Notes under the pieces: generated by a model
The model's input: only the letters and a program-made list of their open reading frames with translations
Told to the model about the DNA's origin: nothing
Database searches by the model: none
Made by a program: the position numbers and the translations under genes
In this document: positions 18,258-63,672 of the stretch, one piece after another
Numbering within the stretch: position 1 is the first letter of the stretch
Layout of the letters: every line of letters starts with the position of its first letter
Origin: a virus
Taxonomy: Duplodnaviria > Caudoviricetes
Virus record (IMG/VR): IMGVR_UViG_3300021255_000131
Location: 1-64,000 of that record
Reading direction: 5' to 3' (one strand)
DNA: 64,000 nucleotides

Positions 18258-18590
18258 ATGGAAAACATCAAAGTGATATTTGAAGAGAACAACCTTCTGA
18301 TATTCATGCTTGTTTTAGCTGCCATCATGGGTTTCTATATCCTCGTCGGCAACGTGATCAAAATTACAAGAGACATTCGTAAACCTCATGGAGATATAAG
18401 CAAAGAAATCAAAGAACTGAAGATCACTGTCGATACGCACAGCACTGAAATTGATAACATCCGGGAAATGAATCGTGTGCAATGCCAGGCTACCAAAGCT
18501 CTGCTGAATCATGCGATCCACAATGGCAATACAGGTGAAATGGAAGAAGCAACTGAAGCGTTAGACAAGTATCTTATGAAGAAAATCTGA
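18258..18590 (+). CDS. Single-TM plus coiled-coil protein (holin-like / lysis accessory)
   Basis: N-terminal TM helix, then coiled coil and 'HNGNTGEM'. Strong RBS. Confidence 0.6.
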   Translation: MENIKVIFEENNLLIFMLVLAAIMGFYILVGNVIKITRDIRKPHGDISKEIKELKITVDTHSTEIDNIREMNRVQCQATKALLNHAIHNGNTGEMEEATEALDKYLMKKI

Positions 18591-30259: not shown

Positions 30260-30332
30260 AGCTGGCGGAGGGACTTGAACCCTCAACCTGCTGATTACAA
30301 ATCAGCCGCTCTGCCGATTGAGCTACGCCAGC
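30260..30332 (-). tRNA. tRNA-Thr(TGT)
   Basis: GCTGGCG/CGCCAGC acceptor, CTGAT-TTGTAA-TCAG anticodon arm, GGTTCAAGTCC T arm. Confidence 0.92.
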
Positions 30333-30336
30333 GAAG

Positions 30337-30424
30337 CGGAGGCAGGTGGATTCGAACCACCGCGCGGCGCAAGCCGCCTATCGGTTTTCAGGACCGACCC
30401 CTTCAGCCGCTTGGGTATACCTCC
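30337..30424 (-). tRNA. tRNA-Ser(TGA)
   Basis: GGAGGTA acceptor, CCTGAAA loop, long variable arm, GGTTCGAATCC. Confidence 0.9.
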
Positions 30425-30612
30425 ATCAGCTTTTGCCGCCTGAAGAAGATGTACAACATGCAATCTCGCACTGCACCCCGTCGACCAACTGTTTATCGGG
30501 CCGATACACGTGCCTGCACATTTCTTCAGACGGCCATTGTCATTCTTCCGTGAGGAGTTACGCTACGCTCACATCAGCCGTTTTACTTTACGGTAACCGG
30601 CTTGCCGGCCAA

Positions 30613-30695
30613 TACGGGCAGAGGGACTCGAACCCTCACCGCCAAAAGGCGAGCGGTTTTTAAGACCGCTACGTAAGCCATTCCGTCATGCCCGC
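30613..30695 (-). tRNA. tRNA-Leu(TAA)
   Basis: GCGGGCA acceptor, GCGGT-CTTAAAA-ACCGC arm, variable arm, GGTTCGAGTCC. Confidence 0.9.
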
Positions 30696-30717
30696 AAAAG
30701 CCCGCCGAGGCGGGCGA

Positions 30718-50153: not shown

Positions 50154-50657
50154 TTATTGATGTAGTTTGGGTTTAGCATTGGACGACGTGAGATGATAGA
50201 AATGATCATCCCGCGTCAGGATCTCTGACATCAGAGGTTTCTTTTCCCAGAAAGCTTTGAGCCTGGCGAAGCCCTGGTCGGCCACCCTGCCAATATCCGG
50301 ATCGGGCACGCGCTTGATGAAGAGCGCGGGCCCTGTCTGATAGCCGGAAATATCGCACGGGAACCAGAACAGTCCGCCTTCCGGGTAGTATTTGCGCATC
50401 TTCTTGTTCTTGCGCCGGCCTGTTTGATACATCGTATCCCGCGTGCGGTAGCAGGAGAGAAAATCGATCATCTCCTCATGCCCGGTCAGCGTGGTGACAA
50501 GGACCTTCGGCATGGCGCCCAAGGTATTGTCCGGCTGAACGACGCGCCAGGGGGCGCGGCTTTCCGCCGTGCCCCTGGTTTTGCAGAGCACGTAAGAGGG
50601 AACGATGTTGCCTTTGCGCATATCCGTTTTCTTTACAATGGCGAGGTAGTAATACAT
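50154..50657 (-). CDS. Hypothetical basic protein
   Basis: AAGGAGG RBS; overlaps the 3' end of the RNA polymerase gene. Confidence 0.6.
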   Translation of the reverse strand: MYYYLAIVKKTDMRKGNIVPSYVLCKTRGTAESRAPWRVVQPDNTLGAMPKVLVTTLTGHEEMIDFLSCYRTRDTMYQTGRRKNKKMRKYYPEGGLFWFPCDISGYQTGPALFIKRVPDPDIGRVADQGFARLKAFWEKKPLMSEILTRDDHFYHLTSSNAKPKLHQ

Positions 50658-53452
50658 ACTTCCTCCTTGCGGCGCAGACGTTCTTTGACTTTGCTGGCGC
50701 GTTTAACAAGCTTCCTGTGCTTCGCCTGGCATTCCGGGCAGCGCTTTTGCCGACCATTGAGCCGGTGGCACCACTTGCCGCACTCGACACAGGTGAAGAA
50801 CCCTTTGACTGCGGCGGAACAGCCGTGCTCTTCCGTCCAGACGGGCAGCTTTATGCCGCAGTGAACGCAGGTAACGCAAGTCATGAGATTCAGCTTGAGA
50901 TTGCGTAATGCAATGTCTCCAAACACACGCCAGAACATTTGCTTATGCGCGGCTTTATCTTTTCCGTCGCCGACGAACAGGGTGTACGCGATGGACGGAT
51001 ACGCGGCTTCAATGCTGCCGCACAGCTCAGTGAGCTTATCTGTAATCAGTTCTTTGAGCGCCTCATAGCCGAAGGCGTTGTACATTTCCATAACGTCCAT
51101 CATGGACGCTCCGTCAATTCTGGATTGCAGATTGCTGTCATCGAGCCGGGAAAAAAGTTCAACGGCTTCTGTGTTGATCTCCGTGACCGGAGCTTCCAGA
51201 AACATCTCGCCGTTGAAGGGTGGAACGCCTACTGCGTTTAAGTTGATGTTGCCGATATTATCAAATAAAGCGCAAAGCCTGTTCATGGTAGAATTGTTGG
51301 CTTTCGCGCACTGCTTCTTCTTTTTCGTCGTGTCTGCATGGCGGCCGTTCTTGGAGAACTGGAACCAGTAAGGCATCTTACCGTTCGGGCCGCCGATTGC
51401 TTTATTGATTTTCGCAGAGACTTCCGGATAATTGGTATAACCGTTGACGGAACCTGTTTTGGCCCCGTCGATCGTGAGATTGTTGAAGTAACACAAAAGC
51501 GCGGCAGACTGTAAATCAGGATGCGGTCTGTTCCAAAGCCTGGTCAGGGCGTTTGAAATCTGGCCGATGCCACTGTAGTCATGCGCGCGCTTGACCCCGT
51601 GAAACAATGTTTCAAGGGAAATCTGTTCGGACGCGGCCTTGGTCGCGTCATAGAACAGGGGAACGATATCATACTCTTGAATGTTTCGCTTGGCGTTGTC
51701 GATCAGAATACGGTCTGAGACAACGTTGAGCTGATCTCCGTCTACATCGAACTGAAGAATTCTTGATATCAGATCATGACAGCTGGTGTAAATGCCGTTC
51801 GTGTAAAACCACGAGGCGATTTCCGGATCGTGATTGACGGTGCGAATCGCATGCTCGTTGAAAAGATGCGGACTCCTTAGAACATCTACCTCGTCTACAT
51901 CCCTGAACGGACGGGCAAAGACTTCGCCGTTTTTCAACAAACCTTCCGGCTCCTTCTGACCGAGAAACCAGTATTGGCAAGCGGCATACAGATCCGGAAT
52001 GGCAAACAGGCGTTTGTTTTTACAGCGTATTTTGCCGGACTTGGCGTCGAGCGTCCAACGCTTTTTGATTGCCTTCAAAGACTCTCTGGAATAAGCTTCG
52101 CGCAACAGCTCCGGATATAAAGTAAGCGCCTGACGATACGGGACTTCCGAATAATCGTCGGCGCCGAGCGCGTGAAGCATGTGTTCCCGGTCGTTCGAGA
52201 GGCTTTTGATCCGATCGTAGGTAGGCCTGACAAACTCCTTCAGCTCATTCTGTGGAAAATTTTGAAGCGTTTGAATGAACTGATAGTTGAGCTCGCTGTT
52301 GCCAATGTACGCCTCTTCCATGTTGGTGCGGCCAAATGTACAGCCGCAGGTCTTGAAGAAGGATTTGTACTCATCCCAGCTGTCGTAGTACTTCCACAGC
52401 TTGAGTTGTGACTTGGTGAAGACGACCTGTATGTCTTCCGCGCGGAGATCGTGCATCTGACCCCAGACGTCTTTCAGCTTTGCCTCGCAGCCGTTTTCCT
52501 CGCAGAAGCGTAGAAAATTAAAACTGCACAATAGGCCCTTTAAAAATGGACCTCGTATCATGAAATTCCATCTGGATACAGAAGGCAGCATCATGCCCGC
52601 GCCGTCACAATGGTTGATAACGACGGTCCGTTCGCCGCGCTCGATGGTGTAATCCGGACTGATATAATCCATCAGGCCGGTGACGGGAGCTTCAAAGTCG
52701 TCCACGACGATGCAGCGGTCAATATCGAGCGGGTAAGGATCCGTTGCCGAGCATGGCAGGGCCAAATACGCCATGAGCTTACTCGTATTAATTCCACCCC
52801 GTTCGTTGATGCGCTCCCAGCTGAGGCCGCACATAATGCGCGGCTCGATTCTTGACCAGGCGTCGTCTGAGAGAAACTGCACCTTGTCCGTTCTGAGCTG
52901 GCCGGCCGAAGCCGTAGAAAAGCGATAGCGTTTGACGGAAACGGAGCCATCCTCGTTCAGCACAGACATATTAAAACCCTGAAGGATGATCTGTCTTAAG
53001 ATATCTTCTGATTTCCACTTGATGATAATCTTGTCGAAGGTGATGTCGTTTTCGTTCAGGCCGAGGGCGCGGGTTTCTTCTGATACGAACTCGGCGATGC
53101 GGCGGTTGGGTTTGAGCGTTTTCCACGTGACGCCCGGCGGGCGTTCTGGAAGCGTTGGATCGAGGACGGCGCTGAGATTCACCGTCCGGGGGACATGCTC
53201 GTGCGAAGCGATGAGCTTGGCGAGAGCGTTTTGCTGTACACGTTTTTCATTGACGATTTCCTGACGGTTAGGTACGGTATCATTCAGCATGCGTTTCAAA
53301 CGGGCGATGTTGAAGAAAATCACGCGCTCCTCGTCAGTCAGCAGATCGTACGTAGAGAAACTTGCGAGGCGGATTTGACTGCTCAGATAAGATTTGTTAC
53401 TCGTGAAACCACCTCTTTTGAAAAGTAAAGCGGCATGTGCCGCTGGGTGCAT
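50633..53452 (-). CDS. YonO-like single-subunit two-barrel DNA-dependent RNA polymerase
   Basis: 'ASAGQLR', 'HCDGAGM', 'IRGPFLKG', 'LRSPHL' and catalytic 'LQFDVDGD', as in the SPbeta YonO/RdRP-like family. C-terminal Cys-rich Zn ribbons. Start uncertain (~53405-53452). Confidence 0.85.
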   Translation of the reverse strand: MHPAAHAALLFKRGGFTSNKSYLSSQIRLASFSTYDLLTDEERVIFFNIARLKRMLNDTVPNRQEIVNEKRVQQNALAKLIASHEHVPRTVNLSAVLDPTLPERPPGVTWKTLKPNRRIAEFVSEETRALGLNENDITFDKIIIKWKSEDILRQIILQGFNMSVLNEDGSVSVKRYRFSTASAGQLRTDKVQFLSDDAWSRIEPRIMCGLSWERINERGGINTSKLMAYLALPCSATDPYPLDIDRCIVVDDFEAPVTGLMDYISPDYTIERGERTVVINHCDGAGMMLPSVSRWNFMIRGPFLKGLLCSFNFLRFCEENGCEAKLKDVWGQMHDLRAEDIQVVFTKSQLKLWKYYDSWDEYKSFFKTCGCTFGRTNMEEAYIGNSELNYQFIQTLQNFPQNELKEFVRPTYDRIKSLSNDREHMLHALGADDYSEVPYRQALTLYPELLREAYSRESLKAIKKRWTLDAKSGKIRCKNKRLFAIPDLYAACQYWFLGQKEPEGLLKNGEVFARPFRDVDEVDVLRSPHLFNEHAIRTVNHDPEIASWFYTNGIYTSCHDLISRILQFDVDGDQLNVVSDRILIDNAKRNIQEYDIVPLFYDATKAASEQISLETLFHGVKRAHDYSGIGQISNALTRLWNRPHPDLQSAALLCYFNNLTIDGAKTGSVNGYTNYPEVSAKINKAIGGPNGKMPYWFQFSKNGRHADTTKKKKQCAKANNSTMNRLCALFDNIGNINLNAVGVPPFNGEMFLEAPVTEINTEAVELFSRLDDSNLQSRIDGASMMDVMEMYNAFGYEALKELITDKLTELCGSIEAAYPSIAYTLFVGDGKDKAAHKQMFWRVFGDIALRNLKLNLMTCVTCVHCGIKLPVWTEEHGCSAAVKGFFTCVECGKWCHRLNGRQKRCPECQAKHRKLVKRASKVKERLRRKEEVCITTSPL

Positions 53453-59755: not shown

Positions 59756-59829
59756 TAGGGCTTCTTGGACTCGAACCAAGGACCTGCGCTTTATAAGAGC
59801 GCTGCTCTGACCTGCTGAGCTAAAGCCCC
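59756..59829 (-). tRNA. tRNA-Ile(TAT)
   Basis: GGGGCTT/AAGCCCT acceptor, GCGCT-CTTATAA-AGCGC anticodon arm, GGTTCGAGTCC. Confidence 0.88.
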
Positions 59830-59832
59830 GGA

Positions 59833-59903
59833 CTGAGGCGGCGGGAGTTGAACCTGCGATGCGGGAGTCAAAGTCCCGTGCCTTACCGTTTGGCGACGCC
59901 TCA
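59833..59903 (-). tRNA. tRNA-Gln(TTG)
   Basis: TGAGGCG/CGCCTCA acceptor and CGGGA-CTTTGAC-TCCCG arm. Confidence 0.92.
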
Positions 59904-59982
59904 ATAAAAAGAGCCTGCGTGCCGAACCTATAGCACGCAGGCTTGCGCAGAAAGGATTGCTGACTTGTTTCACATCAGCAAC

Positions 59983-60058
59983 TGGTGGAGACTGGCGGAA
60001 TTGAACCGCCGGCTTCCTGCTTGCAAAGCAGGCGCTCTGCTAACTGAGTTAAGTCCCC
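59983..60058 (-). tRNA. tRNA-Ala(TGC), CCA encoded
   Basis: GGGGACT/AGTCTCC acceptor with G3:U70; CCTGC-TTTGCAA-GCAGG arm. Confidence 0.93.
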
Positions 60059-60158
60059 ACGTGCACCGGTTAGATTATAGCGCCCAAACCGGTGCCAAAA
60101 CGACGTACAGAAGTGCCGGTCATGACTCCGGCATACTGCCCCCTGTAAGGCAGCATCT

Positions 60159-60228
60159 TAGACCCTGCCTGACTCGAACAGGCGCATAAGCCATACTCGC
60201 TTCGCTCTGCCAACTGAGCTAAGGATCC
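60159..60228 (-). tRNA. tRNA-like gene with aberrant anticodon arm
   Basis: Normal acceptor, D and T arms. The anticodon arm AAGC-GAGTATG-GCTT lacks U33 and purine 37. Confidence 0.65.
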
Positions 60229-60479
60229 ATATGCGCGTAAACCTCACCGATGTAAACCGCGCCGCTGCGTTCTTACGTCTGCCGACTTCTTCGCTTTTGC
60301 TCCATTAGCAGATCAAACGTCAGCTTTAACCGCTTCTCTCTTGTGCGGAGGTTTTGTTTGCAACGCTGCAAACAAGGTGTGGGATTGGATCAAAGGCAAG
60401 ACTAATTGCGCAACCCAAGCCTTCTGTTCCAACGGCGTTGCGCGTGAGCTGCGCCATTTTCCGGCAGCTCGTCCCGACG

Positions 60480-60552
60480 AGGCCCCTGCGTGACTTGAAC
60501 ACGCGACAAGCTGGTTAACAGCCAGCTGCTCTGCCAGCTGAGCTAAGGGGCC
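60480..60552 (-). tRNA. tRNA-Asn(GTT)
   Basis: GGCCCCT/AGGGGCC acceptor and GCTGG-CTGTTAA-CCAGC arm. Confidence 0.88.
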
Positions 60553-61869: not shown

Positions 61870-62274
61870 TTAGCCGAACGGGAACTCGTCGGGCTCCTCG
61901 GTCGCGGGAGCGGGAGCCGCGGGGGCTTCCTCGCCGTCACGCTTCTGCGCAGACAGGAACTCGAAGTTCTGGATGACGTTGATTTCGGGGCTGGCACGCC
62001 AGGACCCATCCTGCGTGGACTGATAGACCGACACCTTCAGCGGGCCTTCGACGAGCACCTGGGTGCCCTTCTTCAGGTACGGAGCGGTGTTGGTGGCCTG
62101 ATTGCGCCACATGGTGCAGCGGACATAGGTGACGGGGCGCTGGCCCTGTTCGTCACGGCGGCCGGAGTTAGCGGCGACGGTGAATGTGCACACGGGCGTC
62201 TGCACGCCAGAAACATTGCGGTTGACCAGCACAGCGTCATTGGTCAGATGTCCTACGATGGTGAGCTTATTCAT
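61870..62274 (-). CDS. ssb: Second single-stranded DNA-binding protein
   Basis: 'MNKLTIVGHLTND', 'FTVAAN', 'YLKKGTQVLVEG' and tail DEFPFG. Confidence 0.92.
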   Translation of the reverse strand: MNKLTIVGHLTNDAVLVNRNVSGVQTPVCTFTVAANSGRRDEQGQRPVTYVRCTMWRNQATNTAPYLKKGTQVLVEGPLKVSVYQSTQDGSWRASPEINVIQNFEFLSAQKRDGEEAPAAPAPATEEPDEFPFG

Positions 62275-62435
62275 GTGATACCTCTTTCTGCCCGGCTAAC
62301 GGGCGTGATCAATATTGGCGTAAGCCGAAGTTTTAGAACCTGTAGCAGGTTCAAAATATATCGTTTAGCGCCGGAGCATTCGTCTGCAGCGCTTAACGAG
62401 CGTATTTGCCGGCCGCGGAAATTGTTTTCTTTTCC

Positions 62436-62489
62436 CGCAAACCTTTCATCATGGCTGCGGCCCGTCCCCGGGCCGCCCTGCTGGCGTAA
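62436..62489. repeat. 54-nt structured repeat, copy 1
   Basis: CGCAAACCTTTCATCATGGCT-GCGGCCCG-TCCC-CGGGCCGC-CCTGCTGGCGTAA. Confidence 0.85.
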
Positions 62490-62509
62490 AGACCAGCTGG
62501 GGAGGGGCG

Positions 62510-62689
62510 TCAGGCTTTCAATAAGCCGGTCGCAGGAAGCGGCGCTTTCTCGCCGAGATATTTGCTGAGCGTTCTGGCGATCTTGAGCCACGCTTCTCTG
62601 TCGTGTTCTTCCCTGGCGATCTTGTTGAGCACGCAGCCCATCGTCGGGTCGAGCTGCTTGGAGCCGTTGTAATACAAGCTTTTATCCAT
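62510..62689 (-). CDS. Small hypothetical protein between the two repeats
   Basis: Start MDKSLYYNGS after GAAAGGAG; 'YNGS...DPT' motif. Confidence 0.6.
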   Translation of the reverse strand: MDKSLYYNGSKQLDPTMGCVLNKIAREEHDREAWLKIARTLSKYLGEKAPLPATGLLKA

Positions 62690-62711
62690 ACGACAATCTC
62701 CTTTCAGGCTA

Positions 62712-62765
62712 CGTAAACCTTTCATCCTGGCTGCGCGGCGTCCCCGCCGCGCCCTGCTGGCGTAA
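62712..62765. repeat. 54-nt structured repeat, copy 2
   Basis: CGTAAACCTTTCATCCTGGCT-GCGCGGCG-TCCC-CGCCGCGC-CCTGCTGGCGTAA. Confidence 0.85.
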
Positions 62766-62858
62766 CAACTGCCGGGCAGCGAAAATAAAGCACTTGTGCC
62801 GGCTTTCTATGGTTAAAAAAGTGAACTTAAAATGCGAAAAATGTAACAGAAATTTAAC

Positions 62859-62887
62859 TTGACAGCGATTTTTCGCGGCAGTATAAT
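62859..62887 (+). promoter_or_regulatory. Consensus sigma-A/sigma-70 promoter
   Basis: TTGACA (62859-64), 17-bp spacer, TATAAT (62882-87), with AT-rich sequence upstream. Confidence 0.85.
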
Positions 62888-63633
62888 GGAATCCCGAGAA
62901 AAACCACCATGGTGCCGCCCGTCCTCGGGCGGCGTTGCCAAGAAGATAGAAACGAGCCAAGCAAGAACAGTGAACATTAGCTTGGCCGGCTTAAGGCGAG
63001 ATATGGTTATAAACATGTATAATCTGGTACCAGAAAATACTGTCGACATTCAAGAATCGATATATATGGAAAGAGAAGCCCAAAACGCAGAAGTACGCGA
63101 ATCGCGTGAAGCGCGATTCGCCTGATAACTACACGACGGTTAAAAGATAACCGAAGTGAAGCTGACAGGACGGCATTGAATAAAGCGTCGTTCCCATGGA
63201 AGGAACGACGCGCTGAAACAGTGAAAACTTAGGCTTGAAGAGAAACGCAGGACCTGCATAACAGGACCTGCAATGAAAAATATCTCCCGTCGCCCATGGA
63301 AGGCGACGGGAGGGTGATGAAGATAACATGTCTAAAGAAAGAAAAGAACCTCGAAGCTGACACGCTGAAGTCAAAAGAAAGAAACGAACTTTCTTTCTTT
63401 TCAGGCACGATGAAGATAACTACAGAGGGTAGAGAGATAACACCTCCTCGATATAGGAATAAAAAAGGAATCAAAAGGACAAAACTGTGAAAGAACTACT
63501 CGTGCTTCTGAGTAAACACAAGATATTGTATCCGATTCCCCTCCTTTCTACTACATCTTGATATATCTCCAATATTGCTGATATATCACCTCTTTTCCTG
63601 TTATCGTTCGGCATGGTTTTAAGTTAGCAGTGT

Positions 63634-63672
63634 AAATAGGGGAGCGCCGGTGAAGCGCTCCCCTTATTTTTT
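63634..63672. terminator. Probable bidirectional terminator
   Basis: AAATAGGGGAGCGC-CGGTGAA-GCGCTCCCCTTATTTTTT. Confidence 0.75.

Follow-up and report, generated by a model that had tools for sequence, protein, structure and literature searches.

A seven-copy family of GC hairpins in the early region of a ruminant-gut phage, candidate structure-read promoters of a two-barrel RNA polymerase

Layout of the leftward arm

The stretch of DNA analyzed here (the window) covers positions 1 to 64,000 of an IMG/VR record of 111,048 bp that has a 107-bp terminal repeat and belongs to an uncultured long-tailed phage of the ruminant gut possessing its own cell-type RNA polymerases. DNA of this phage was found in gut metagenomes of cattle, goats and sheep (14 studies). 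Minus-strand genes extend from ~73.2 kb down to 18.9 kb and form a 54-kb leftward arm, within which a repeat search retrieved a direct repeat of 54 nt (62436-62489 and 62712-62765), identical at 46 of its 54 positions. As the initial annotation of this DNA had described, the flanks of both copies are near-identical, with 2 differences, and the other 6 of the 8 differences correspond to three swapped base pairs in an 8-bp stem (GCGGCCCG/CGGGCCGC in copy 1 vs GCGCGGCG/CGCCGCGC in copy 2), all of them compensated, so that both stems pair perfectly around GGGA on the minus strand. Each flank occurs only twice in the whole genome. The same annotation had located the pair at the head of the leftward arm; since minus-strand genes begin at ~73.2 kb, the repeats are inside the arm and not at its head. 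They are, moreover, part of a seven-member family (elements 1 to 7, listed further below) and not an isolated pair.

A search for related phages, proposed by the initial annotation as a check, yielded one relative in IMG/VR, hereafter R, consisting of two contigs (L017 and L016) with ~78% nucleotide identity to this genome and carrying orthologues of six elements. The main features surrounding the elements are as follows, coordinates above 64,000 being those of the whole genome.

61870-62274, minus strand: SSB gene (Pfam PF00436, E 1.6e-21), the first gene after element 1
62510-62689, minus strand: 59-aa ORF without a family match, flanked by elements 2 and 1
62859-62887, plus strand: perfect host-type promoter TTGACA-17-TATAAT (12/12), both hexamers kept in R
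63041-63077, plus strand: ~35-nt motif GTCGACAYTCAAGAATSGATATATATGGAAAGAGA, within a stretch (62.9-63.66 kb) with no convincing ORF
63185-63211 and 63284-63312, minus strand: two strong intrinsic terminators ending the unit upstream of elements 3 and 2
64947-64979 and 66468-66500 (L018 4947-4979 and 6468-6500), minus strand: 33-nt terminator-like repeat ending two early units
65835-65854: terminator-like hairpin after element 6, absent in R
73248-73283 (plus), 108801-108830 (plus) and 49461-49425 (minus): other copies of the ~35-nt motif

Read along the minus strand, the region starts with the terminator-like repeat at 66.47 kb, followed by elements 7 and 6 and three small genes, one of them RNase H-like. 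The second terminator-like repeat, at 64.95 kb, precedes element 5, an HTH gene, element 4 and two genes, and three terminators (63.5-63.2 kb) then separate these from elements 3 and 2, the 59-aa ORF, element 1, ssb and a terminator at 61.77 kb. Both copies of the 33-nt repeat (GGGxCCCC...GGGGCCC then (T)ATATTTTT) are kept in R despite their diverged surroundings. Homologues of the 59-aa ORF belong to two protein clusters only, with 100% and 69% identity. Upstream of ssb lies a structured leader of 180 nt (62275-62446, minus strand) with further conserved hairpins: one at 62336-62352 reads GAACCTG-CTA-CAGGTTC in this genome and GAACCC-TTCG-GGGTTC in R, and another, GCCCG-TTAG-CCGGGC, is located just ahead of the Shine-Dalgarno sequence, with an additional TTACGCCA before the hairpin. 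Eight tRNA genes are present on the minus strand in two clusters (59756-60552 and 30260-30696), with Ile, Gln, Ala, Tyr and Asn in one and Thr, Ser and Leu in the other.

Host-type promoters are oriented against these genes. Between 72.6 and 38.7 kb, no sense (minus-strand) promoter of the host type reached 10 of 12 matches, and the strongest ones in the 62-72 kb interval (62859, 66572, 68048 and 71103) are all rightward, antisense to the leftward genes. The first of these opens a plus-strand unit of ~750 nt (62888-63670) with no convincing ORF, which runs from the perfect promoter to a strong terminator (63638-63664) and is 79.5% identical in R, above many genes. This unit also contains two long hairpins with different stems and a common CCATGGAAGG loop, which are terminators on the minus strand. 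A second stretch with no convincing ORF (66.1-66.74 kb) ends in a plus-strand terminator at 66717-66738.

Regarding the ~35-nt motif, one of its other copies heads the structural operon, one follows the tape measure gene and one precedes a replication block. All copies are oriented with local transcription, and the motif does not resemble a host promoter and is kept in R. It is probably a second promoter class for a phage polymerase, and a better candidate than the hairpins for a middle or late class, which leaves the hairpins for an early one. As it heads late and replication operons, the hairpins would be at most one of several promoter classes.

In RNA libraries (Logan), contigs were found for 62545-62874, for portions of ssb and of its leader, and for two stretches, at 63.3 and 63.9 kb; these contigs are sparse, unstranded and devoid of transcript ends, and are not proof of transcription. 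The contig spanning 62545-62874 crosses element 2 unbroken, from ~120 nt upstream.

Three proteins encoded by this genome are of interest as putative RNA polymerases.

50633-53452, minus strand: YonO-type single-chain two-barrel RNA polymerase, with a DVDGD motif (PF05183)
68268-71081, minus strand: divergent YonO-type paralogue, with a DNDGD motif (hhalign probability 97.6%)
91012-108768, plus strand: tape measure protein of 5,918 aa, with PF10145 at residues 2025-2228

The first shares 36.8% identity with YonO of SPbeta (E 1e-123, tblastn) and is a candidate reader of the elements; polymerase homologues P0004-P0010 are 25-84% identical. YonO was described in 2017 and its promoter is still undefined (PMC5467207). 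In the tape measure, a DFDGD motif is found at residue 903, ahead of the PF10145 domain, and the protein may, by analogy with Thermus phage P23-45, be a virion polymerase fusion; a profile comparison (hhalign) with the YonO-like paralogue family was not significant. Searches of PDB sequences with both polymerases and the N-terminus of the tape measure returned no match. The profile of T7-like polymerases (PF00940) matched nothing in the genome, the control for this search likewise matching nowhere.

A seven-copy hairpin family

Six copies were obtained by scanning for perfectly paired GC hairpins that enclose a purine tetraloop and looking next for a CCAKGRTG box, and a repeat search added a degenerate seventh. 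All seven copies in the 111-kb genome are on the minus strand, intergenic and contained within 3.7 kb (62,435-66,116). Elements 4 to 7 are just outside the 64-kb window and are given in coordinates of the whole genome.

Element 1, 62435-62488, minus strand: hairpin 62457-62476 (GCGGCCCG GGGA CGGGCCGC), box CCATGATG at 62447-62454, 5' flank TTACGCCA-N5; covariance model 69 bits
Element 2, 62711-62764, minus strand: hairpin 62733-62752 (GCGCGGCG GGGA CGCCGCGC), box CCAGGATG at 62723-62730, starting 41 nt ahead of the ATG of the 59-aa ORF; covariance model 62.6 bits
Element 3, 62892-62945, minus strand: hairpin 62914-62933 (GCCGCCCG AGGA CGGGCGGC), box CCATGGTG at 62905-62912, opposing the rightward consensus promoter and kept in R; covariance model 51.6 bits
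Element 4, minus strand: hairpin 64441-64462, 9-bp stem with a GAAA loop
Element 5, minus strand: hairpin 64871-64890
Element 6, minus strand: hairpin 65979-65998
Element 7, minus strand: hairpin 66085-66104, one mismatch, box CCATGGCG

The family consensus is SSSSSSCG-RGGA-CGSSSSSS (S being G or C), followed after 1-2 nt by CCAKGRTGA, i.e., an all-GC stem of 8 bp, a loop that is RGGA or, once, GAAA, and a 3' flank on the minus strand of the form (A/G)(G/C)CCAKGRTG. The 5' flank TTACGCCA-N5 is present in two of the seven copies of this genome and in 5 of 13 over both genomes; common to the initial pair, it made these two copies look 54 nt long. No other motif upstream of the hairpins was found to be common to the copies. 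Within the family, tandem spacings are 106, 181 and 276 nt. With a covariance model trained on 14 copies, the seven elements obtain 46-69 bits, and nothing else in the genome exceeds 13 bits.

The initial annotation had also pointed to a shorter match, the 9-mer CGTAAACCT, at ~60236 and ~60888. Its recurrence is real, and it is found at 18378 (plus) and 21041 (minus) as well, with five sites in all vs ~0.85 expected; since the recurrence sites have no hairpin, no CCATG box and no match to the covariance model, they are not counted as family members.

Covariation was evaluated on a 14-row alignment of the 8 stem pairs (112 cells). Pairing is preserved in 99.1% of the cells, double-sided changes affect 6 of the 8 pairs (24 cells) and there is not a single one-sided change. 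All cells but one are G-C or C-G, with no G.U pair among the 112, and the two pairs adjacent to the loop are almost invariant. None of 500 shuffles reached the covariation score, and with slid partners pairing falls to 30-54%. Compensated pairing together with both controls indicates that the hairpin structure is under selection. The predicted folding energies are -18.5 to -19.8 kcal/mol as RNA and -12.1 to -13.5 kcal/mol as DNA, similar on both strands, and the absence of G.U pairs leans slightly towards a reading at the DNA level or, alternatively, a need for maximal stability. In the loops, GGA occurs in an RGGA context in 13 of the 14 copies. The GNRA tetraloop proposed by the initial annotation thus holds for GGGA and does not extend to the family, whose AGGA loops (5/14) are not GNRA.

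Comparison with R adds to this picture. Orthologues of elements 1 to 6 are present there, with compensated stem changes at one pair of element 1 and four pairs of element 5, and the first loop base alternates between A and G in five of the six orthologue pairs, GGA remaining constant. Over the interval from the terminator to the HTH gene's Shine-Dalgarno sequence, both genomes have only one conserved block in common, made up of hairpin and box. The distance from box to ATG is 40 nt for element 4, 41 nt for element 2 and 44 nt for element 5 (39, 40 and 50 nt in R), and elements 1 and 4 are located 16-34 nt past a stop codon. Element 7 and its 100-nt spacer (genome 66001-66101) exist in this genome only and look like a tandem duplication. 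The gene content of the two genomes differs exactly at elements (genome 63671-64478 vs L016 747-1299): downstream of element 4, this genome has genes for proteins of 136 and 100 aa, and R has a 63-aa gene before the element and a 101-aa HTH gene after it, the latter product being 25% identical to the 100-aa protein. The repeats may hence be recombination points for the exchange of gene cassettes.

IMG/VR scans with SSB, the second polymerase, an E1-like protein and a polymerase alignment gave R as the only relative genome, and no GenBank phage matched the region by blastn, whether tuned for near or for distant relatives. The flank pattern retrieved nine chance matches in IMG/VR, and a pattern scan of metagenomes only near-identical contigs of both genome types plus five chance matches. 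No such element was found near 73 YonO homologues by hairpin-family and covariance-model scans of 72 loci, a set without the B. subtilis 168 chromosome (SPbeta mapped YonO start, coordinate 2225998), which suggests that the signal is specific to this lineage. An Rfam search, likewise proposed at the outset, identified in the 58,000-67,000 interval at E up to 1 only tRNAs and one below-threshold lncRNA match (E 0.77) away from the elements, no family matching the elements themselves.

Several simple identities were examined and discarded. As intrinsic terminators, the hairpins would lack the U tract on the minus strand, and no T run is present on the plus strand either. A small conserved ORF beginning at the ATG of the box is not supported, frames and peptides differing between genomes and the one of element 6 in R stopping after 8 codons. 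A conserved lower stem formed by the flanks exists only on the plus strand of elements 1-3 and requires G.U pairs.

Candidate functions of the elements

Among the three readings offered by the initial annotation (antitermination site, processing site or hairpin promoter), the last one fits best. Tentatively, and just short of an even call, we consider the elements to be structure-dependent promoters, or the promoter core, of a phage two-barrel RNA polymerase. Such promoters would drive leftward transcription of the 3.7-kb block of small early genes, ssb included. The signal would combine a hairpin of 8 bp, all GC, in which any stem sequence is tolerated provided it pairs, fixed closing ...CG/CG... 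pairs, a purine tetraloop containing GGA and a fixed CCATGRTG box 1-2 nt past the stem, with transcription starting in or just past the box, ~40 nt before the start codon. We prefer this reading because the elements occupy the place of a promoter in consecutive leftward units (ordered terminator, element, Shine-Dalgarno sequence, gene), with no other conserved block from a terminator to the Shine-Dalgarno sequence that follows it, because they are clustered in one early region, some in tandem, with strict orientation, and because the genome encodes YonO-type polymerases whose promoter is undefined. Clustering and tandem placement are typical of one temporal promoter class. The position of elements 1 and 4 right after stop codons suits an RNA boundary signal equally well.

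As to the enzyme, it is conceivable, with somewhat more doubt attached, that the YonO-type or tape-measure-fused polymerases read DNA shape (GC hairpin, GGA loop and CCATGRTG box) as a promoter. Two known systems come close. The first is phage N4. N4-type hairpin promoters have their start site at a constant distance past the hairpin. The early promoters P1-P3 of N4 are read by gp50, the virion RNA polymerase; their stem has 5-7 bp, and their loop, which is on the template strand, has 3 nt (5'G-R-A3') and a closing C:G pair (PMC4496689). The elements share with them a short GC-rich hairpin whose non-conserved stem bases need only pair (as reflected here by the near-complete pairing and the compensatory changes in 6/8 pairs), a purine-rich loop with G and A, a fixed closing pair, a short conserved sequence next to the stem, a small number of copies grouped on one strand of an early region, and an SSB gene or requirement nearby. 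They differ by their 8-bp stem and 4-nt RGGA/GAAA loop closed by G:C, by the location of the loop on the non-template strand if they fire leftward, and by the enzyme, T7-like in N4 whereas the polymerases found here are of the two-barrel YonO type. The elements are thus best described as analogous to N4 early promoters, not as members of the N4 family.

The second system is P23-45, whose virion (tape-measure-fused) and non-virion two-barrel polymerases use the promoters ttattccttta and tctaggggc (PMC10770324). Both phages have a giant tape measure, possibly with a polymerase domain here, plus separate two-barrel polymerases, and an early region of short units in which terminator and promoter are close. 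However, the promoters of P23-45 are linear motifs with no hairpin, and the tape-measure fusion is here a possibility raised by the DFDGD motif at residue 903.

Rather unlikely, though it accommodates several observations, is an RNA processing or boundary site in sense transcripts, where an endoribonuclease would cut the single-stranded CCAUGRUG box, the GC hairpin serving as a 3' protective cap for the upstream message and the downstream message gaining a defined 5' end. Every copy is indeed between cistrons, elements 1 and 4 directly after stop codons, the hairpin is very stable as RNA, the GGGA and GAAA loops are GNRA, and an RNA-library contig crossing element 2 unbroken is as expected if transcripts start further up. 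However, this would leave the units that follow strong terminators (elements 5, 3 and 6/7) without a promoter, nothing else being conserved there, and it explains neither the absence of G.U pairs, nor the AGGA loops, nor the confinement of the copies to 3.7 kb of a 54-kb arm. The stem of 8-9 bp is also too short for RNase III, whose T7-type sites are duplexes of at least ~20 bp in which an internal loop is common.

Less probable still is an action on the elongating polymerase, either as nut/put-like antitermination or as a pause or termination site for a polymerase that ignores terminators. Like lambda nut and HK022 put, the elements would form a small hairpin in the RNA, with a GNRA-type loop, past early promoters; several copies are upstream of hairpins or terminator-like sites (e.g., 65835-65854 after element 6). 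YonO-type enzymes are without the flap domain used in hairpin-dependent termination (PMC5467207), and the P23-45 virion polymerase has an unusual conserved terminator motif (PMC10770324). Nevertheless, membership in the nut/put group, as proposed initially, fails. The boxA of lambda nut (CGCTCTTA-like) is absent, an 8-bp stem with a tetraloop, AGGA in five copies, stands in place of the 5 bp and pentaloop of nut, and no N-like protein is evident. HK022 put requires two adjacent stem-loops of ~70 nt in cis, vs here a single 20-nt hairpin with no conserved second helix. Nor is there a U tract, and seven sites in 3.7 kb are far above what processive antitermination needs. A terminator located 40 nt before a Shine-Dalgarno sequence would shut off the gene unless a promoter lay between them, and the terminator after element 6 is missing in R.

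Firing in the opposite direction may also be considered. Rightward firing, with the minus strand as template and the purine loop on the template strand, would produce antisense or non-coding RNAs or primers, feeding the two stretches with no convincing ORF (62.9-63.66 kb and 66.1-66.74 kb). This would match the loop position of N4 (PMC4496689) and place the best-conserved box upstream of the hairpin, and elements 1-3 and 6-7 are each left of such a stretch, the plus-strand terminators 63638-63664 and 66717-66738 ending them. We nonetheless judge this improbable, since elements 4 and 5 would yield only antisense RNA to coding genes, nothing is conserved at the would-be transcription start, and the fixed 39-50 nt to minus-strand start codons would be a coincidence.

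Cassettes of the PeSL (promoter-early stem-loop) type in T4-type phages reportedly have a sigma70 early promoter next to a stem-loop (Arbiol et al. 2010). Like them, the elements are repeated stem-loop cassettes before small early genes, and gene content varies between relatives at the cassettes (here, genes swapped around element 4 and the extra element 7); this identity was rejected, no host-type promoter overlapping or standing beside any copy on the minus strand.

The RGGA of the loops matches the core of the CsrA SELEX consensus RUACARGGAUGU. The weakest rival, very improbable in our view, is a host CsrA-type or other translational regulator bridging the GGA of the loop, which nearly all copies have, and the GGA of a Shine-Dalgarno sequence ~25-40 nt downstream, as follows elements 2, 4 and 5: it would leave the fixed CCATGRTG box unexplained and the missing promoters unsolved, elements 3, 6 and 7 have no nearby Shine-Dalgarno sequence, CsrA would bind poorly to a tetraloop held by a rigid GC stem, and no CsrA gene was found in the phage.

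Significance for two-barrel phage polymerases

In the literature searched, hairpin promoters were found in N4-like phages only. Should the elements be promoters of a two-barrel enzyme, the hairpin promoter would have been invented twice independently, the prior case being the unrelated T7-like polymerase of N4. The YonO class would also gain its first defined promoter, and the promoter question, open since 2017 (PMC5467207), would become testable: the candidate is a 30-nt signal with natural compensatory variants, and three candidate enzymes are encoded in the same genome. If the elements act instead as an RNA signal, they would represent an undescribed, phage-specific boundary element. Confirmation of the promoter reading would mean that structure-read promoters have arisen by convergence in an unrelated polymerase fold, and would provide an orthogonal promoter-polymerase pair.
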